From Bacteroidales bacterium (GTDB lineage: Bacteria; Bacteroidota; Bacteroidia; Bacteroidales; VadinHA17): DNA of 64,000 bases. The notes below the pieces were generated by a model, which was not told where the DNA came from, made no database searches, and saw nothing but the letters and a program-made list of their open reading frames with translations. The position numbers were made by a program, and so were the translations under genes. Below are positions 1,671 through 48,195 of the stretch, in pieces; the stretch's first letter is position 1; each line of letters opens with the position of its first letter. The stretch lies in contig PLML01000004.1 of NCBI GenBank assembly GCA_003141525.1, positions 787 to 64,786 of the forward strand, written 5' to 3'.

Positions 1671-2004
1671 ACAATTTGATATCTGGATTGCGGATCTCGT
1701 ACCACAACGAGGAACAGAAACCGGCAAAGTAAGACCTGTTTTAATTGTTCAAACCAACCTTTTAAATAACGTGCACCCATCTACTTTTATTTGTCCCATT
1801 ACAACCAATGTAGAGAAAGACAGCGATATATTAAGGGTTCATATAAGAAAGGGAATCGCAAATCTCAAGATTGAATCTGATATTATGATTGATCAAATCA
1901 GAGCTATTGATAACAGAAGATTGTTAAATAAAATTGGCGAACTGACAAAAGAGCTTCAATTAAAAGTTAAGGATAATATCAAAATAATTTTTGATCTGGA
2001 CTAG
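1645..2004 (+). CDS. mazF: PemK/MazF-family toxin (mRNA interferase)
   Basis: FDIWIADLVPQRGTETGKVRPVLIVQTN...ICPITT...IMIDQIRAIDNRRL are classic MazF/PemK motifs. The true start may be an internal Met a few codons in. Confidence 0.8.
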   Translation: MKISMMKIKQFDIWIADLVPQRGTETGKVRPVLIVQTNLLNNVHPSTFICPITTNVEKDSDILRVHIRKGIANLKIESDIMIDQIRAIDNRRLLNKIGELTKELQLKVKDNIKIIFDLD

Positions 2005-2015
2005 CTCAATTGTTA

Positions 2016-2051
2016 AGGAGAAAGTAAGTAAAAAGTAAAAAGTAAAAAGTG
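2016..2051. repeat. left arm C (AAGTAAAA units)
   Basis: The sequence aggagaaagtaagtaaaaagtaaaaagtaaaaagtg is the inverted partner of 2697-2739. Confidence 0.75.
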
Positions 2052-2205
2052 TTTATTTATTATGAAGGAGAATGATTTAAAGGAACGTTTATTCCGTTTT
2101 GCGGTTAATGTGTTAAAAATGCTCGGAACATTAAAAGGGGGAAAAGAGACAGATGTTATAAAATATCAATTATCAAAATCAGCTACTTCATCTGGCGCTA
2201 ATTAT

Positions 2206-2493
2206 TCACCCTGTCAAATTGCATCAAATTGTTAAAAGATTTTTATTGTACATATGTTTTAAGGAGTTTGACCGATTTCAAATTTTACGTTGGTTTTACA
2301 TCAGATTTGATGCAAAGATTTGAGGCGCATAACGCGGGTAAAGTACCTTCAACCAAAAATCGGAGACCTTTTGAAATTGTATACTTCGAAGGTTGTCGCT
2401 CAAAAGAAGATGCAATTAATCGAGAGAAATATCTGAAAACATTTTATGGGAAGATGTTTTTGAAAAACCGCCTCAAATCTTATTTGACTGGGT
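2206..2493 (+). mobile_element. 288-bp GIY-YIG micro-element with inverted termini CCCTGTCAAAT/ATTTGACTGGG
   Basis: The left end is tcaCCCTGTCAAAT (2209-2219) and the right end is ATTTGACTGGGt (2482-2492). It carries only the 88-codon GIY-YIG ORF and sits precisely inside a conserved host codon block. Confidence 0.75.
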
Positions 2494-2495
2494 AG
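2229..2495 (+). CDS. small GIY-YIG nuclease family protein
   Basis: YVLRSLTDFKFYVGFTSDLMQRFEAHNAG...REKYLKTFYGKMFLKNRL carries the GIY/YIG, R and E motifs of the UPF0213-like single-domain GIY-YIG proteins. The start is non-ATG (TTG) in the track. Confidence 0.85.
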   Translation: MLKDFYCTYVLRSLTDFKFYVGFTSDLMQRFEAHNAGKVPSTKNRRPFEIVYFEGCRSKEDAINREKYLKTFYGKMFLKNRLKSYLTG

Positions 2496-2696
2496 AGAAT
2501 CTCAATCTGGATCCTCAAAGGCAGATTTTGCGAATAAAGTGAGAATTTCATTGCGAGAAATGCGCGAATCAAATTATTGGTTACGAATTATAAAGGAACT
2601 TTTCCCAAAAACAGAAAATATTGTATATTTAGTTGGCGAAAGCGAAGAGCTAGGAAAAATTCTTGCTTCAATTCTAATAAAATCACGGAACTGACT

Positions 2697-2739
2697 CATT
2701 CTTTACTTTTACCTTTTTACTTTTTACTTTTTACTTTAT
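2697..2739. repeat. right arm C
   Basis: The sequence cattctttacttttacctttttactttttactttttactttatc is the reverse complement of the AAGTAAAA units. Confidence 0.75.
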
Positions 2740-2814
2740 CCCACTTTTGTCTTGTGACTTTTGTCTTTTATCTTTAACCCCACTTTTGTCTTGTGACTTT
2801 TGTCTTTTATCTTA
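2740..2814. repeat. right/outer arm A, present as a 38-bp tandem duplication
   Basis: cccacttttgtcttgtgacttttgtcttttatctt occurs twice (2740-2776 and 2778-2814). It pairs with 833-877. Confidence 0.8.
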
Positions 2815-2825
2815 AACATAATATA

Positions 2826-3608
2826 ATGAAGCACCTCACCCTCATACTATCTACTGCCTTACTTCTGGCCGCTTCCTGTACCAGCCAAAAGAAACTAGCG
2901 TATCTGAATAATCTCCCCGAGCCAAAAGGTGAAGAGTCGTTTAACATGTCTATCCCGGACTATAAAATCCAGCCGCGCGATATACTTTATATTTCAGTAA
3001 AAGCTATGGCCCCTGATGGTTCAATTAAAGATTTCTTATCATCTGGTAGTAATAACGGGATGTACTTAACACAGGGTGATGCAGGAGGGGCTTTTATGGG
3101 CTATAATGTCAGCCCGGATGGGTACATTACACTAGTGCCAATTGGACAGATAAAAGTAAGTGGTCTTACACTGGAGGAAACCAGAAAAAAACTGCAGGAA
3201 TTAACAGAAAAAGTCTTCCTAAACTCAACTGTAGAATGTAAATTGCTCAGTTTTAAATTTACGGTGATTGGAGAAGTCAAAAGTCCGGGAGCATATATCA
3301 ATTACAATAATTACCTGACTGTTATTGAAGCAATTGGACGCGCCGGAGGAGTAGGCGACTTAGGAAACAGGAACCGGATCCTGGTTGTTCGTCCGATTGA
3401 TAAGGGAACCAAAACCTATAGAATTAATCTGCAGGATAAAAATATTCTTACATCAGAAGCATATTTTCTTCTTCCAAATGACGTGGTAATAGTGGAACCG
3501 GTGAGACAGAAGATCTTTAACATGAATGTGCCGACTATTTCTTTTGTAATCTCAACCTTCACAGCAACAATTACGATGACACTTTTGCTCATTAATTATT
3601 TGAAATAA
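2826..3608 (+). CDS. wza: polysaccharide export outer-membrane lipoprotein (Wza/BexD family)
   Basis: Lipoprotein signal MKHLTLILSTALLLAASC. Poly_export/SLBB-like motifs are PDYKIQPRDILYISV, GYITLVPIGQIKVSGLTLEE and VIGEVKSPG. The track ORF start at 2793 translates the repeat arm, so I use the Met at 2826. Confidence 0.85.
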   Translation: MKHLTLILSTALLLAASCTSQKKLAYLNNLPEPKGEESFNMSIPDYKIQPRDILYISVKAMAPDGSIKDFLSSGSNNGMYLTQGDAGGAFMGYNVSPDGYITLVPIGQIKVSGLTLEETRKKLQELTEKVFLNSTVECKLLSFKFTVIGEVKSPGAYINYNNYLTVIEAIGRAGGVGDLGNRNRILVVRPIDKGTKTYRINLQDKNILTSEAYFLLPNDVVIVEPVRQKIFNMNVPTISFVISTFTATITMTLLLINYLK

Positions 3609-3612
3609 AAAA

Positions 3613-3668
3613 TTCTAAGTTCAAAGTTCAAAGTTCAAAGTTCAATGTTCCAAGTTCCATGTTTAAAG
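3613..3668. repeat. left arm D (CAAAGTT units)
   Basis: The sequence ttctaagttcaaagttcaaagttcaaagttcaatgttccaagttccatgtttaaag is the inverted partner of 4361-4400. Confidence 0.75.
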
Positions 3669-3837
3669 ACATATTTATATGAAGATAGAGAAGTTTGAAG
3701 ATCTGGAGATTTGGCAAGAAGCCAGGGAGTTATGCAAAAGAGTCTTTGAAATAACTTCCGTCAGTCCGTTTTGCAATGACTTTAAATTTAGGGATCAGAT
3801 CAGAGCTTCATCTGGATCAGTAATGGATAATATAGCC

Positions 3838-4127
3838 TGCCCTGTGAAATAGCAAGATGTATTATGTATATATACTTATAAGCGAAAAAGATAACATGTT
3901 TTATACAGGTTATACATCAGACCTTGAAAATCGAATAGAAGAGCATTTGAAAGGGAAAGTAAATTCTACTAGGCACAGATTGCCTTTAAAGCTTGTCTAC
4001 TATGAATGTTCTATTAATCAGGATGATGCGCTTCATAGAGAGAAATATCTTAAAAGTACGTATGGCAAACGATATATTAAGAACCGTTTAAAACATTTTC
4101 TAAATGAGTAAATATTTCACAGGGCAA
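3838..4127 (+). mobile_element. 290-bp GIY-YIG micro-element with perfect 13-bp inverted termini GCCCTGTGAAATA
   Basis: GCCCTGTGAAATA at 3839-3851 and TATTTCACAGGGC at 4113-4125. The only cargo is an 84-codon GIY-YIG ORF. Confidence 0.8.
3857..4111 (+). CDS. small GIY-YIG nuclease family protein
   Basis: [30 protein letters not shown]...[18 protein letters not shown] is a paralog of the 2229-2495 product. Confidence 0.85.
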
Positions 4128-4360
4128 GAAGGCTTCGAACGTGGTGGAAATAAAGAGTTTATCCAGTTTCTGAGTATTGCCAAGGGATCTTGTGGTGAAG
4201 TCCGTTCACAATCTTATCGATCATTTGACTATAAATATATTAACCAGGAAATTTTGGATGAACTTATTTCCAGAACAATGCAACTAAGCAAGAAAATCTC
4301 ATCACTTATAGGATATTTGAAAAATAGCGAATTTAAAGGCTCAAAATTCCATACCTCATA

Positions 4361-4400
4361 ACTTTGAACCTTGAACCTTGAACATTTAACCTTGAACCTG
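4361..4400. repeat. right arm D
   Basis: The sequence actttgaaccttgaaccttgaacatttaaccttgaacctg runs directly into the wzc start codon. Confidence 0.75.
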
Positions 4401-6838
4401 TGACCATGGATCCAAATTATCCCTCCCCCCCTCAGCCAAACCTCCCCGAGGACGACAACCTCGACATAAAAAGATATCTAACTCTGTTCATGAGCAACTG
4501 GTACTGGTTTGCAATCTCATTATTTATTGCACTGACAGTTGCCTATGGCATAAACAGGTACTCCAGTAAACTATATACTATTTCGTCAACACTCATGATA
4601 AGTGATGACCAGTATTCAGGGTCGAGCAGAATTGTAAGCAGCGCAATCCCCGGAGGAGATATTTTCAGGAGCAAGCCAAACATAACAAATGAAATATCAA
4701 TACTGAAATCTTTCAGCCTCAATAAAAGAGTAATAGACTCATTACCCGAATTCAGGGTGGCATATTATGGTGTCGGAAAAAGAAACATCGCTGAGACCCA
4801 GCTTTATAAAAACTGTCCTTTCAGGGTAACATCAGAATCTGTTGATGTTCAGCCTAAAAATGTAAGAGTAAATATCATTATAAGTTCTGCAACAACTTAT
4901 TCACTGGAAATTAATGGGAATAAGAATGTTGAAAAGGACCTTAAATTTGGCCGGCTCTTCAGTAAAGATGGTTTTAAATTCATTATTGAATTGAGAGATC
5001 CGAATAATTTTAAATTTAATCCTAAAGTATCAAATAAATACTATTTTTATTTTACATCTTCTGACGAACTGGCAAACAATTACAGGGCAAATCTGAGTGT
5101 GGCACCGATTGAAAAAGATGCCACTATTGTTAATTTATCTAAAGTAGGTCTGGATCCGCAGCAGGAAGCTGATTACCTGAATAAACTTATGGAAGTATAT
5201 AGAAATCAGGGTTTGGAATCTAAGAATCATATTGCTGACACTACAATTGCTTTTATAGATAAACAACTCGGCTTTGTTGCAGATTCTCTTAAAAAGGCCG
5301 ATAATAAACTTCAGAGATTAAGACTTGACAACAAATTGATTGACCTCGGTAAGGATGGCACTCTTTTACAAACTCGTTTAGAGAAGTTTGCGAATGAAAA
5401 AGTATCCCTTAAGCTTCAATATTATTATTTTCAATATCTGAAAGAATATCTTGACACCAAAAACGAATCGGGTGATATTGTTTCTCCGAATGTTATGGGA
5501 ATTACCGAACCGACGTTAGGAAAACTGGTTCAGGAACTTTCAGAACTCCAGAAAAAGAAGAAAGAGATGTCTATGAACCTTTCAGCGGAGGTGCCGCCGT
5601 TAAATCTATTAACTGAAAACATACACAAAATAAGAATGGCTCTTACCGAGAATATAAAGAGTAGTTTTGCCAGTATAGAACATTTAATTGACGATTCAGA
5701 AAAAAATATAGAAGAGGTGAACCAGGAGATAAATAAACTTCCGGGAACCGAAAGTAAGAGGATAGGTATTCAGAGAGACTTTGATATAAGCAATACTGTT
5801 TATACCTATCTTCTTGAGAAAAGAGCTGAAACCGGTATTGCAAAGGCTTCAAATGTCCCGGACAGCAAAATTGTTGATTATGCAAATATCATTAATACCG
5901 TCCAAATTAAACCAAAGCCAGGAGGGAACAATTTAAAGGCATTACTTTTTGGCATATTAATTCCCGCGGTCATTTTATTCTTATTATATTATTTAAATAA
6001 CAAAATTATCGACAACGGGGACATTATTAAAAAAACAAATGTACCGATAATGGGGTATGTCAGTCACAGCGAATTTAAAAAAGAGATCCCTGTTATTGAT
6101 AACCCGAAATCAGCTCTTTCAGAATCATTCCGTTCAATCAGAACATCTTTACGATATTTTACAAAACAATCCAGCCATTCTGTTATTGCCATTACATCCA
6201 CTATAAGCTCGGAGGGGAAAACTTTTATATCAATTAATCTTGCAGCAATAACGGCACTGCTTGGTAAAAAAGTATTATTAATCGGTCTCGATCTTCGGAG
6301 ACCAAGGATACACAAAATCCTGGGGATTGACAATAGCGAGGGTCTCAGCACCTATTTAATAGGTAATTGTGAATATAAAGAAGTTATAAAGGAAACATCA
6401 TTAAAGAATCTGTATTATGCTACTTCCGGACCAGTACCCCCAAATCCGGCTGAACTGCTAGAGGAGGAAAGGATGGATGCATTTATTGTGAAAGCGAAAA
6501 AGGAGTTTGATTATATATTTATAGATACCCCACCGATTGCGATAGTTTCAGATACTTTATTAATTGCCAGGTTTGTAGATGTTAATCTTTTTATTGTGAG
6601 GCAGAGGTATACCTCAAAAAATACATTGGAATTAATTGAGGAATTATACAAGGATGAAAAACTTAAACACATGGGGATTATTATTAATGATATAAGCCTT
6701 ACAGGTTATTATGGGTATGGGATAAGATACGGCTATTATAAGGGTTATGGATATTCATACGGTAAAAACTACTATGGGCAGTATTCTTACAGCCGGTACG
6801 GATATTCAGATAAAGAACATGGATATTATAATACTTAA
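4400..6838 (+). CDS. wzc: chain-length determinant / tyrosine autokinase (Wzc/GumC family)
   Basis: 812 aa with a Wzz-like periplasmic coiled-coil region and two TM segments. Walker A is SEGKTFISINLA, followed by DLRRP and IDTPP. The C-terminal tail is Tyr-rich (YYGYGIRYGYYKGYGYSYGKNYYGQYSYSRYGY). The start is GTG 4400 or ATG 4406. Confidence 0.9.
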   Translation: MTMDPNYPSPPQPNLPEDDNLDIKRYLTLFMSNWYWFAISLFIALTVAYGINRYSSKLYTISSTLMISDDQYSGSSRIVSSAIPGGDIFRSKPNITNEISILKSFSLNKRVIDSLPEFRVAYYGVGKRNIAETQLYKNCPFRVTSESVDVQPKNVRVNIIISSATTYSLEINGNKNVEKDLKFGRLFSKDGFKFIIELRDPNNFKFNPKVSNKYYFYFTSSDELANNYRANLSVAPIEKDATIVNLSKVGLDPQQEADYLNKLMEVYRNQGLESKNHIADTTIAFIDKQLGFVADSLKKADNKLQRLRLDNKLIDLGKDGTLLQTRLEKFANEKVSLKLQYYYFQYLKEYLDTKNESGDIVSPNVMGITEPTLGKLVQELSELQKKKKEMSMNLSAEVPPLNLLTENIHKIRMALTENIKSSFASIEHLIDDSEKNIEEVNQEINKLPGTESKRIGIQRDFDISNTVYTYLLEKRAETGIAKASNVPDSKIVDYANIINTVQIKPKPGGNNLKALLFGILIPAVILFLLYYLNNKIIDNGDIIKKTNVPIMGYVSHSEFKKEIPVIDNPKSALSESFRSIRTSLRYFTKQSSHSVIAITSTISSEGKTFISINLAAITALLGKKVLLIGLDLRRPRIHKILGIDNSEGLSTYLIGNCEYKEVIKETSLKNLYYATSGPVPPNPAELLEEERMDAFIVKAKKEFDYIFIDTPPIAIVSDTLLIARFVDVNLFIVRQRYTSKNTLELIEELYKDEKLKHMGIIINDISLTGYYGYGIRYGYYKGYGYSYGKNYYGQYSYSRYGYSDKEHGYYNT

Positions 6839-11580: not shown

Positions 11581-11697
11581 TTCAAAACGAGAACCGACCC
11601 GCTTTTCACTTTCTCCTTGTTATCTTTACTTTTGTCTTGTGACTTTTGTCTTTTATCTTTATTTCAACCTCAACCTCAACCTAAACCTGAACCTCAA
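11581..11697. repeat. stacked arms: unique segment J, A-type right arm, E-type right arm
   Basis: tcaaaacgagaaccgacccgcttttcactttctc is the partner of 12225-12305. acttttgtcttgtgacttttgtcttttatctt is the A family. caacctcaacctcaacctaaacctgaacctcaag is the partner of 9866-9903. Confidence 0.65.
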
Positions 11698-11772: not shown

Positions 11773-11988
11773 ATGAAGAAAATCAAATACGTAATTTATA
11801 AAGAAGGAAAGTATTATGTTTCACAATGTTTAAATGTGGACATATCCAGTTTTGGTACCACCATTGATGAGGCAAGTGCCAACTTGAAAGAAGCTTTACA
11901 ATTATATTTTGAAGATGATAAAAGTCATTGGGATTATTTACCAATTTCAGAAGCTTTAATTGGGGAAACTCAGCTTAATTTGAGATGA
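11773..11988 (+). CDS. short HicB-like antitoxin
   Basis: 71 aa. YVIYKEGKYYVSQCLNVDISSFGTTIDEASANLKEALQLYFED matches the UPF0150/HicB N-domain pattern. Confidence 0.6.
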   Translation: MKKIKYVIYKEGKYYVSQCLNVDISSFGTTIDEASANLKEALQLYFEDDKSHWDYLPISEALIGETQLNLR

Positions 11989-12123
11989 CAAAACTGTAAT
12001 TGTTCCTTGCCCTGTGAAATAGCACAAAGCCCCCGCCCTGGCCATATTTCACAGGGCCGGCACCCCGGAAGGAAATCCCTATTGGTACTTTTCGTTCAAT
12101 AATAAGACAATCAGGATTAAACC
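11985..12123 (+). pseudogene. decayed HicA-like toxin gene
   Basis: It starts MTKL and then hits a stop. After the 49-bp insert is mentally removed, the same frame reads FVPSAPRKEIPIGTFRSIIRQSGL, a HicA C-terminal motif. The central dsRBD-like part is missing and the 3' end appears frameshifted. Confidence 0.45.
12010..12058. mobile_element. 49-bp miniature derivative of the 3838-4127 element
   Basis: GCCCTGTGAAATAGCA...ATATTTCACAGGGC has termini identical to the 290-bp element, with only about 20 nt between them. Confidence 0.7.
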
Positions 12124-12379
12124 AAAATGATTTTGTTTGAGAAAAAGATGGTTAGTTTATACAGGAATCTACATTTTATACCTCGAAAAACACGAAACGC
12201 CCAGGGAATTAGAAAAATGATAAAAAGTGAAAGAGAAAAAAAGTTTCTCGATTTTCATTTGACTTCGTCGAGCTCGTCCCGCTAAAGCGGGACTCGGTTC
12301 ACGTTTAAGAAAGCTCTTAGCCCTGTGCCACTAAACGATAATCTCAAAACACTTAATACGAAACGTGTTAAATTTTTTA

Positions 12380-12543
12380 ACTTTTGTCTTTTTCCTTTCT
12401 CCTTTTGCCTTTTGCCTTGATTCTACTTTTATCTTGTGACTTTTGTCTTTTGTCTTGATCCACCCCTGCATGCTGTCCCCTTCGCTAAATTTGCCTACCA
12501 GGCAAATTTTTAACGCTCGGTCCTGTCTTTTATCTTTATAGAG
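12380..12543. repeat. composite right arms (long A-type, then G', then short A')
   Basis: cttttgtctttttcctttctccttttgccttttgccttgattctacttttatcttgtgacttttgtcttttgtcttga is followed by ccttcgctaaatttgcctaccaggcaaatttttaacgctcggtcctgtcttttatcttt. It ends one nt before the wzm ATG. Confidence 0.8.
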
Positions 12544-13441: not shown

Positions 13442-13478
13442 TAAAGATAAAAGACAAAAGTCACAAGATAAAAGTGGA
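13442..13478. repeat. left arm A (third copy)
   Basis: taaagataaaagacaaaagtcacaagataaaagtgg is the exact reverse-complement style of the 32-bp ACTTTTGTCTTGTGACTTTTGTCTTTT motif. Confidence 0.8.
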
Positions 13479-13951
13479 AGAAAAGAAAAATGATTTGTGC
13501 GAGAGACTCTTTGAGTTTGCAGTAAGAGTAATTGAATTTTTAAAAACACTACCTTATTCCCCAGAAAATAAAACTATTCGTACGCAATTATCAAAAAGTG
13601 CTTGTTCGTCAGGAGCTAATTACTCGCCCTGTCAAATTGCATCAAATTGTTAAAAGATTTTTATTTTATATATGTTTTAAGGAGTTTAACTGATTTCAAA
13701 TTCTATGTTGGTTTTACATCAGATTTGATGCAAAGATTTGACAGGGTGAAGAGTCTCAAAGCGGTTCATCCAAGGCAGACTTTTCTAACAAAGTCAGGAT
13801 TTCCCTTCGTGAAATGAGAGAATCAAATTATTGGCTCAGAATAATTATAAGAACTGTTAAAGAAGTTAATGGGCCAGAACTCGACTACCTTATAAAAGAA
13901 TCAGGAGAACTCAAAAACATCCTTGGCTCTATAGTCCAAAAAACCAGATAA
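13474..13951 (+). pseudogene. four-helix-bundle gene (GANY subtype) interrupted by a 124-bp miniature element
   Basis: The 5' half reads (V/M)EEKKNDLCERLFEFAVRVIEFLKTLPYSPENKTIRTQLSKSACSSGANY (to 13623). The 3' half reads EESQSGSSKADFSNKVRISLREMRESNYWLRII... (13748-13951). Removing 124 nt restores the frame. Confidence 0.85.
13624..13747. mobile_element. 124-bp non-autonomous (MITE-like) derivative of the 2206-2493 element
   Basis: The termini are CCCTGTCAAAT (13627-13637) and ATTTGACAGGG (13736-13746). The interior equals the first ~115 nt of the full element, including the 5' part of the GIY-YIG ORF, with 6 mismatches by my count. Confidence 0.8.
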
Positions 13952-13956
13952 TCAAC

Positions 13957-13999
13957 CTCTTTTTACTTTTGTCTTGTGACTTTTGTCTTTTGTCTTTGA
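13957..13999. repeat. right arm A
   Basis: The sequence ctctttttacttttgtcttgtgacttttgtcttttgtctttga. Confidence 0.8.
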
Positions 14000-47084: not shown

Positions 47085-48195
47085 AAAGGTTTTGCGCCAG
47101 GCAATATTTGATTCTGATTTCTTTGGACATGGGGGAGAAAAACGCACTGCGCAGATCTCAAATTTATTGACCGCTAATAATATTGAATATATTCTTGTTC
47201 CCGGCTTAGTTAAACAAAAGATTTCTTTAGCATTTTTAAAGAATTTAGTATTATCAGTTCTAATTAATATTAAAATCGGATTAAGATTAAGATCAATCAG
47301 CTCCATTCTAAATATGGTCAAGAGAATCTACCATTCTGCCCTGATAATCAATAGCATTGAGAAAATCTCAAGATTTGACACCTCAATTTTCCTATGGGAA
47401 GGAACTAAACCAGAAAACTATATATATCCTATTTACTTTAAAAGACTAAAATACAAGGTAATTGGCTTACCCCATAATTTAGAATCATTAGTCCCTTCAC
47501 AGTTTTCCAAAATTACAAATAAAAAATCCCCTTCATGGTTGTGGGAAGAAATGGCAATGCTCAAGGTTTGTGATGTTGTATTTACTATATCACGAGAAGA
47601 AAATCTCTTACTGAAACAATTTGGTATCGATGCACAATATTTGCCTTATTTCCCTGCTGGTGATGTTTATCATCGTCTTTTGGATATAAGATCCCATCGT
47701 ACCAGGAAGAAAGAAATAAAAGCTATTAAGAAATTGCTTATGCTTGGGTCAATAATTAATATACCTACCCGACTAGGAATGATTGACAGAATTGACTGGT
47801 TTGTTAATTCAAAACCTGACAATTATAAATTAGGAATTGCCGGATATTCAACGGAAGAACTAAAAAGCATAATTATTGATTCAGAAAATATTGTCCTTTA
47901 CGGATCCCTGTCAAATGATCAATTATACGATATGCTTTCGGAGGTAGATGCTGTTCTTATACATCAGGTTGCCAGTTCAGGAGCTCTCACAAAAATTCCG
48001 GAGATGCTTATTGCCGGAATTCCTATCTTAATTAATTGTGAAAGTGCAAGAAGCTACTATAATATCGATGGTTTAAATATTTACGAAAATGATGCAGAAC
48101 TTAATGAATATCTTTTAAATGAGAAGGTATTCCGTGTTCCTCCTTTACCACAAATACCCTACTCTTATTTTAAAAGTTTTTTAAATAGAATCTGA
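47077..48195 (+). CDS. hypothetical protein with GT-B-like C-terminal half
   Basis: 372 aa. The C-terminal LGIAGYSTEE...AVLIHQVASSGALTKIPEMLIAGIPIL is reminiscent of GT1/GT4 donor-binding domains. I saw no clear EX7E. Confidence 0.3.
   Translation: MNRKVLRQAIFDSDFFGHGGEKRTAQISNLLTANNIEYILVPGLVKQKISLAFLKNLVLSVLINIKIGLRLRSISSILNMVKRIYHSALIINSIEKISRFDTSIFLWEGTKPENYIYPIYFKRLKYKVIGLPHNLESLVPSQFSKITNKKSPSWLWEEMAMLKVCDVVFTISREENLLLKQFGIDAQYLPYFPAGDVYHRLLDIRSHRTRKKEIKAIKKLLMLGSIINIPTRLGMIDRIDWFVNSKPDNYKLGIAGYSTEELKSIIIDSENIVLYGSLSNDQLYDMLSEVDAVLIHQVASSGALTKIPEMLIAGIPILINCESARSYYNIDGLNIYENDAELNEYLLNEKVFRVPPLPQIPYSYFKSFLNRI

Follow-up and report, generated by a model that had tools for sequence, protein, structure and literature searches.

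What is the 290-nucleotide (nt) block that separates the two halves of a four-helix-bundle gene in a member of the Bacteroidales? The locus that raises this question lies in a stretch of DNA of 64,000 nt from a Bacteroidales bacterium (GenBank assembly GCA_003141525.1, contig PLML01000004.1); by the window we mean the whole of this stretch. Three short open reading frames (ORFs) follow one another at 3679-4361, and an earlier note, made from the letters of the sequence, had read them as a host gene interrupted by a small element that carries a GIY-YIG nuclease. We call this element E2. It consists of a left end, a nuclease ORF and a right end, and occupies positions 3838..4127; the elements, nuclease genes and host halves described below all lie on the forward strand. 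Our analysis makes it likely that E2 is a copy of a widespread family of selfish mobile mini-elements, each made of inverted ends and a bare GIY-YIG nuclease gene. For the annotation of this locus the lesson is that the three ORFs are one gene and one parasite.

The host gene can be reconstructed by excising 3838..4127 in silico. This joins the 5′ half (53 codons, 3679..3837) to the 3′ half (4128..4361) and gives a protein of 130 amino acids (aa). The joined protein matches PF05635 from end to end (profile positions 1-105 of 106, E 1.6e-34), as well as TIGR02436, the four-helix-bundle or 23S rRNA intervening-sequence family (positions 1-109 of 109, E 3.2e-32). Its uninterrupted homologues number in the thousands. 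The best of them (P0121) is 94% identical at the amino-acid level, and all of the 120 best are full length or nearly so (124-216 aa). The most direct evidence comes from orthologous loci in which the host gene is uninterrupted (L081/L082 and L085/L087) and which have neighbours in common with the window, namely a Poly_export gene upstream in L085/L087 and an 811-aa GNVR/AAA_31 gene downstream in L081. When these empty loci are aligned with the window, the gap is exactly 3838..4127. The uninterrupted sequence across the junction reads ...GATAATATAGCTGAAGGCTTC..., with the empty site at ...GATAATATAGCT|GAAGGCTTC..., and comparison with these loci reveals no target-site duplication at E2. The earlier claim that a 290-bp insert splits the host at NIA|EG, which is the most conserved motif of the four-helix-bundle gene, is therefore borne out by the empty orthologous loci.

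E2 is a true, precise and recent insertion, in sense orientation. The empty orthologous alleles are about 92% identical to the window host at the DNA level. In family comparisons E2 is labelled W2 and its sister copy in the window, E1, is labelled W1. Between W2 and the related copy at L088 the rate of synonymous substitution (dS) is 1.31 for the hosts and 0.41 for the nucleases; as the latter is about a third of the former, the insertions are younger than the divergence of their hosts. In the comparison of W2 with L094, whose hosts are distant paralogues with a non-synonymous rate (dN) of 0.48, the nucleases have a dN of 0.046. Because nuclease divergence is far below host divergence in both pairs, we conclude that the element travels between alleles and between paralogues. 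Over 45 four-helix-bundle pairs, the identity of the hosts shows no correlation with that of the nucleases (r about 0). Co-divergence had been considered as a proof that the split gene is maintained; it was rejected on account of this missing correlation and of the dS values, which make the element the younger partner. Since its split from L081, and with L085 as the outgroup, the window host lineage has accumulated 16 synonymous changes and one conservative non-synonymous change. A GAA->TAA change in the 3′ half has also removed two terminal codons relative to the orthologues.

The ends of E2 are inverted repeats, TGCCCTGTGAAATA on the left (3838..3851) and TATTTCACAGGGCA on the right (4113..4126). 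They are 14 nt long and 100% complementary, one base longer than the perfect 13-bp termini that had been reported for this element. Their core, CCCYGTNNRAT, is conserved in 76 relatives. In the predicted fold of single-stranded DNA the two arms pair with each other in both the minimum free energy and the centroid structure (z -4.6), and the same stem is predicted on either strand. Between the ends lies a stand-alone gene for an 84-aa GIY-YIG nuclease (3857..4111), which takes up 255 of the 290 nt. This is the sole ORF of E2, and no transposase of a known class (DDE, DEDD, HUH, serine or tyrosine) is present in the element. A TAG at 3850-3852, inside the left end, terminates the N-terminal half of the host as ...NIA-CPVK*, and the ATG of the nuclease starts 4 nt past this stop. 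The same distance is found in L088 and L094, with 5 nt in L005, and E1 has a TTG start that overlaps the host stop; a host stop in or just past the left end, near the nuclease start, is thus common to both window copies and the closest relatives of E2.

Searches for other functional parts of E2 gave little. A sigma-70-type scan for a promoter of its own found nothing above chance, although Bacteroidota promoters are not covered by such a scan. For introns and ribozymes, an Rfam scan of 1900-4500 at E<=1 returned just a meaningless match to IS009 (17 bits). In a tblastn search for a vehicle with the E2 nuclease, plasmids gave no match and phages one weak match (40%), with no PHROG. The element is chromosomal.

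The nuclease itself is well defined. Residues 1-72 match positions 1-76 of the 78-position PF01541 profile (E 9.6e-17), and with 84 aa in all the protein is a GIY-YIG catalytic domain only, with no additional domain or DNA-binding module. Five residues that are invariant across 30 relatives (Y5, Y16, G18, R26 and E62) are all present, and H30 is kept in at least 90% of the same relatives. The closest solved structures are those of the UPF0213 proteins 1zg2 (E 3.4e-10) and 1ywl. Measured against its relatives the gene has a dN/dS of 0.05-0.14 and is under purifying selection.

E2 is not the only copy in the window. The sister element E1 (2206..2493, 288 bp) sits in a paralogue of the four-helix-bundle subfamily 4HB-B (2062..2694), and the TTG start of its nuclease ORF (2229..2495) is the one that overlaps the stop of the N-terminal host half. 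Relative to uninterrupted homologues (L095/L097/L098), E1 is a clean 288-bp insertion at AAY TAY|GAR GAA, with a boundary that is ambiguous by 1 nt (T) and without a target-site duplication; these homologues are 114 aa long, as is the healed ORF. The two nucleases share 50.6% identity over 83 aa, in keeping with the view that they are paralogous but diverged, and the cores of the termini do differ by a single base (CCCTGTGAAAT versus CCCTGTCAAAT), their variable triplet being GAA in E2 and CAA in E1. It had also been suggested from a manual alignment that both elements use an equivalent position. As a check we formally aligned the proteins of 13 hosts from elsewhere with those of the window's six four-helix-bundle genes. 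The alignment places the sites in homologous columns one codon apart, E1 after the Y of ANY|RE and E2 after the A of NIA|EG, and at the DNA level both insertions are directly 5′ of GARG. The idea that two element lineages track two host subfamilies stands in part. Each lineage does recur in its own subfamily, E2-type elements in 4HB-A genes (L005, L088-L094) and E1-type elements in 4HB-B genes (the copy at 13624, L022 and L025), and nucleases 87-89% identical to that of E2 occupy the identical junction in other four-helix-bundle genes. The family, however, is not confined to such genes.

Miniature derivatives are a further sign of activity. E3 (13624..13747) is a 124-bp, internally deleted derivative of the E1 type, located at the same site in another 4HB-B paralogue. 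Over 115 nt it shares 94% identity with E1, compared with 53-70% for the host flanks, and it is predicted to fold as a long hairpin in single-stranded DNA. E4 (12008..12058) is a miniature hairpin of 51 bp, a derivative whose ends are of the E2 type. It begins with the same 17 nt as E2, and its predicted single-stranded hairpin has an energy of -15.9 kcal/mol (z -4.2). By eye, E4 follows a HicB-like ORF of 71 aa (11773-11988) and lies within the tail of a HicA-like toxin gene (12059-12130), which reads ..KTVIVP | APRKEIPIGTFRSIIRQSGL and whose N-terminal part is missing. Outside the window, tandem arrays of full and miniature copies occur in L016, L035, L058, L051 and L071; within tandem arrays the cores are exactly 4 nt apart (TTCA or TGAA). 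Besides the full element, the host gene at L005 has a non-autonomous mini-copy (2259-2356, about 98 bp) that bears the same ends and is inserted at an FEDL|..W site. Since this site is a different one, the choice of site is not absolute. A lone match to the core at 47906 in the window has no partner and falls inside coding sequence, and we take it as chance. An early version of the end pattern, CCCYGTNNARAT, was in the wrong register and gave no matches.

In order to see how far the family extends, we surveyed a collection of genomes with one genome per species. In this collection 559 stretches encode relatives of the nuclease, and we examined the best 80 of them (60-74% identical). Among proteins, more than 3000 clusters at 90% identity match the nuclease at E<=1e-5, and a profile search returned 17,960 clusters at 50% identity at E<=1e-3, or 3,572 at E<=1e-10. 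The best 80 of the 559 come from the Bacteroidota, Planctomycetota, Patescibacteria, Verrucomicrobiota, Chlorobiota, Cloacimonadota, Omnitrophota and other phyla. The family unit is about 270-330 bp long, with terminal inverted repeats of 12-16 nt and one bare GIY-YIG gene of about 84 aa. Nearly all of the best 80 share ends of the form [TY][TY][CT]A-CCCYGT-NNR-ATA ... TAT-YNN-ACRGGG-T[AG]AA.

Statistics on the ends were compiled for 76 related elements (from loci L001-L080, W1 and W2). The recurrence of the same end architecture in all of these counters a chance origin for the 14-nt repeat of E2. More telling is the variable triplet, which is identical in both arms of 67 of the 76 elements, when 18.5 were expected and the maximum in 2000 shuffles was 29. 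One element (L067) has even swapped CCCT/AGGG for ATAC/GTAT on both sides. The pattern is reversed at position -2, outside the CCCYG core, where the arms systematically fail to complement each other (agreement in 16 cases, with 31.7 expected): a left TTCA goes with a right TAAA, or a left TTTA with a right TGAA. This mismatch may mark the cleavage site, or may tell the two ends apart.

Excision in silico restores long ORFs in 60 loci, and Pfam domains run across the healed junctions without a break. In 54 of these loci the element is on the same strand as its host and in 6 on the opposite one. By our arithmetic the one-sided binomial probability of such a bias is ~5e-11, a figure to be read in the light of there being only ~20 independent host families. 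Within genes, the hosts include PF05635 (15 loci, the two window copies among them), Bro-N (11), SLFN_AlbA_2 + HATPase_c_4 (7), YhcG PDDEXK (4), tyrosine integrases (Phage_integrase, 4) and PDDEXK_3 (2). Other copies are intergenic, between the methylase and res genes of a type III system, upstream of a ParE-toxin domain, and between AbiEi and AbiEii; by eye, one further copy lies between atpD and atpC. No target motif common to the host families was found in the 76 loci. A universal junction rule was also tried there, with 0-6 extra bases per side, and was abandoned as no single geometry fits. In four loci (L012, L036, L060 and L068) the nuclease ORF and the 5′ or 3′ part of the host form one in-frame fusion, and the GIY-YIG domain also occurs within long or fused proteins (P0243, P0301, P0305 with 655 aa and the domain at 219-295, P0358 with 600 aa, and P0377). 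Such copies may yield nuclease-host chimeras as products.

How might such an element move? The insertion splits and most likely inactivates the host gene, and the nuclease would be made from the host transcript by termination-reinitiation. We infer that the nuclease recognises the paired ends of its own element, because the specificity triplet changes in step in the two arms, which is what one expects of a transposase but not of a homing enzyme. By analogy with the related Ssn nucleases, it probably acts on these ends in single-stranded DNA, on the stem that they would form there. The end-to-end stem would loop the element out and bring the short conserved host flanks side by side. The released or nicked strand could then anneal to an empty paralogue, or serve as a template for its repair, annealing or short-homology repair being the route of integration that we favour. 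In this way copies would come to occupy that conserved motif in further alleles and paralogues, with no duplication of the target. The model would account for the small size of the element, the absence of a duplication, the conserved multi-copy targets and the mobility of mini-copies. The strand bias of 54:6 would reflect a need for transcription by the host.

A different reading was put forward in the earlier note, namely that the locus is a maintained gene in pieces, made up of the 5′ half, the nuclease and a coupled 3′ half translated from 4104, with the halves reassembling and the function kept. It had pointed to ATGAGTAA at 4104..4111, which overlaps the nuclease stop and supplies an ATG from which the host 3′ half could be read in frame. 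This ATG does open an ORF, 4104..4361, in that frame. All six P0004 loci (L088-L093) have the same ATGAGTAA; in these, gene callers set a C-half ORF (PF05635, at least 87 aa) 8 nt inside the nuclease ORF, and the ATG is found in L005 too. It is not, however, a feature of the family. The ATG at 4104 arises because the nuclease ends in Asn-Glu codons (AAT GAR), which makes it a by-product, and it is absent from L094, where AAGAATAA encodes Lys-Glu (AAA GAA). In the other ten elements examined with a four-helix-bundle host, the 3′ half has no ATG; 7 lack any start codon and 3 have only a GTG/TTG candidate. That both host halves are intact, and match PF05635 end to end when joined, is correct and speaks for a gene in pieces, as does the 16:1 ratio of synonymous to non-synonymous changes in the window host lineage, although neither proves function. 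With the element younger than the divergence of the hosts, the purifying signal mostly predates the insertion, and with empty alleles at ~92% DNA identity the intact halves reflect recency. Elsewhere, occupied hosts are truncated (L092 and L093) or doubly interrupted (L005), and the full-length homologues described above make uninterrupted alleles the norm. Taken together we regard a maintained split gene as unlikely.

The distribution of E2 has much in common with that of a classical free-standing homing endonuclease, which would cut the duplex empty NIA|EG site and leave homologous repair to copy the element in, its ends being irrelevant to mobility. Diverged hosts carry the element at the same site and show no target duplication, alleles with and without it exist side by side, it is of more recent date than its hosts, and it targets the motif that is best conserved in a multi-copy family. 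This explanation is nevertheless fairly unlikely, given a protein that is a catalytic domain without a DNA-binding module and nucleases 60-70% identical that occupy unrelated targets. Homing also has no need for conserved ends, or for a triplet that co-varies between them. Recognition of ends is suggested by the mini and tandem copies and by insertions elsewhere in the same gene, and the flanks of paralogous hosts are only 53-70% identical. A last possibility places removal at the level of RNA, with a stem in the mRNA being processed and the exons either rejoined or left unjoined, as in 23S rRNA intervening sequences. We consider this extremely improbable. The element matches no Rfam family, introns and ribozymes included, and has no room for a ribozyme since the ORF fills most of its length; many copies lie between genes, where splicing serves no purpose; and the ends, mini-copies and empty sites are features of DNA. 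Three observations would suit it, namely the same-strand bias, the predicted fold in which the ends pair and the host flanks are brought together, and a host gene family that is itself bracketed by stem-forming repeats, but the first of these is explained by a need for host transcription.

Several points weigh against the explanation that we favour, a mobile mini-element with a nuclease that acts on its own ends. The geometry of insertion is not uniform: restoring the frame takes 5 extra bases outside the CCCYG cores for E2 and for the Bro-N lineage, and 4 for E1, for the AlbA_2, YhcG and PDDEXK_3 lineages and for the tandem arrays. The two copies in PDDEXK_3 / GxxExxY hosts (L003 and L036) are flanked by a direct GTTTAC/GTTTAY repeat, each unit encoding Val-Tyr, which looks like a target duplication of 4-6 bp, unlike the two window elements. 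GIY-YIG enzymes are hydrolytic and cannot transfer strands on their own, and the integration step is for this reason left to unnamed host functions. The flanking-motif pattern published for the Ssn nucleases (SRM; HGTCWYN(0-2)YYVSBRHN(0-5)WNVSBRGN(0-2)RNCYNB) has 0 matches in the 64-kb window, which counts against the link to Ssn. The 16:1 ratio in the host, together with an ATG that is kept in the closest clade, leaves room for a function of the split gene.

The surroundings of E2 have features of their own. Of the window's six four-helix-bundle genes, five each have a long inverted repeat on either side, made of short tandem units that differ from gene to gene. The arms are at 908-934/1336-1362, 2026-2049/2713-2736, 3608-3668/4360-4397, 6852-6895/7269-7306 and 13443-13475/13965-13997. 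The third pair brackets the host cassette of E2 with an inverted tandem-heptamer repeat, (GTTCAAA)n, upstream at 3608..3668 and downstream at 4360..4397 (strand not set for either arm), and this bracket is also present in L005 and L081. Such brackets resemble the stems that flank 23S rRNA intervening sequences, the setting in which the four-helix-bundle family was discovered. The genes have the look of self-contained cassettes with hairpins at their flanks, dropped in among the genes of a polysaccharide locus. A 23-nt intergenic repeat, TTGTCTTGTGACTTTTGTCTTTT, has 9 copies within 3 mismatches, against 0 expected, and often adjoins these cassettes; the copies are at 2747-2769, 2786-2808, 11632-11654, 12429-12451, 13449-13471 (reverse strand) and 13969-13991, with weaker ones at 844, 9280 and 10664. 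Between two cassettes, at 1440-2004, is a two-gene pair with ORFs of 76 and 119 aa, the second of which resembles a PemK/MazF-type toxin by eye. The start of the window is generally rich in toxin-antitoxin-like and selfish cassettes and is followed by a long polysaccharide-biosynthesis locus.

In the literature that was searched, no GIY-YIG element with terminal inverted repeats as its boundaries is described, and such elements are not discussed in the 2006 survey of the GIY-YIG superfamily. To our knowledge, the recognised classes of bacterial transposon use DDE, DEDD, HUH, serine, tyrosine or Cas1 enzymes, and none is mobilised by a bare GIY-YIG nuclease. At ~290 bp, such elements would be some of the smallest that are known to move autonomously. 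Should the family be mobile as suggested, it would explain split and pseudogenised annotations of four-helix-bundle, Bro-N, Schlafen/AlbA_2, YhcG and integrase genes in the Bacteroidota and in many uncultured phyla. It would also offer many natural pairs of nuclease and end, with a visible specificity triplet, as a source of tools for single-stranded DNA. A natural origin would be at hand for the Ssn systems of nuclease and hairpin repeat. More tentatively, and with somewhat less than even confidence, we propose that these units are a previously unrecognised class of prokaryotic transposable element, with two short inverted ends and an 84-aa GIY-YIG nuclease as its entire machinery. It would move via a single-stranded, stem-looped intermediate, would enter conserved motifs of multi-copy genes and would leave the target unduplicated; the hairpin repeats of the Ssn/NTS type that many bacteria have would be its miniaturised or domesticated descendants.

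Judged by architecture, the closest described relative of E2 appears to be the Ssn/NTS system. Among stand-alone GIY-YIG nucleases of the ~84-aa size class, only the Ssn proteins (cd10448) have been characterised. They are site-specific, act on single-stranded DNA only, bind flanking hairpins and cut just 5′ of the stems, and the stem may be built from two separate strands (PMC11893778). The repeat-ssnA-repeat arrangement has been likened to an insertion sequence and treated as possibly domesticated (Chenal et al. 2025, PMC11893778). Both systems have a single-domain nuclease (~90 aa in Ssn, 84 aa in E2), inverted-repeat DNA on both sides of it and miniature hairpin copies scattered in the genome. 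They differ in that each flank of E2 is one arm of a single long-range inverted repeat, whereas an Ssn flank is a self-contained hairpin. E2 is also a discrete insertion in coding sequence with known empty sites, while NTS repeats are rarely found inside genes, and Ssn is presented as a domesticated regulator of transformation rather than an active mobile element.

The Seg and Mob genes of T4-like phages are similar to E2 in being selfish GIY-YIG genes at conserved sites, polymorphic in their presence and without target duplication. They too can cut a host gene into two ORFs that are in principle separately translatable; mobE reportedly splits nrdA of phage Aeh1 into a working gene in pieces. 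As with homing genes, empty and occupied alleles occur without target duplication for both E2 and E1. Unlike E2, the phage genes are phage-borne, carry DNA-binding domains with which they recognise the empty target, and have neither terminal inverted repeats nor miniature derivatives. Homing genes are housed in introns, in inteins or between genes, whereas E2 sits directly in an ORF and brings stops with it.

The IS200/IS605 and REP/RAYT elements are likewise very small, insert sequence-specifically without target duplication, have an end structure that is recognised in single-stranded DNA, and spread as miniature hairpin repeats or clusters. In IS200/IS605, however, an HUH tyrosine transposase forms covalent intermediates and rejoins the DNA, and the hairpins are subterminal; E2 has a hydrolytic GIY-YIG protein and terminal inverted repeats. 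Bacterial MITEs (miniature transposable elements with inverted repeats) and the Rickettsia palindromic elements are short, bounded by inverted repeats and found within ORFs, and E3 and E4 are MITE-like. The Rickettsia elements, which are said to lie inside protein-coding genes, differ in being read through in frame as an extra peptide, whereas E2 has stops and a gene of its own, and known MITEs derive from DDE-type insertion sequences. With insertion sequences and MITEs E2 shares inverted ends and miniature derivatives, but not the class of transposase or the target duplication. In its architecture the element appears to combine features of the Ssn, homing and insertion-sequence kinds.

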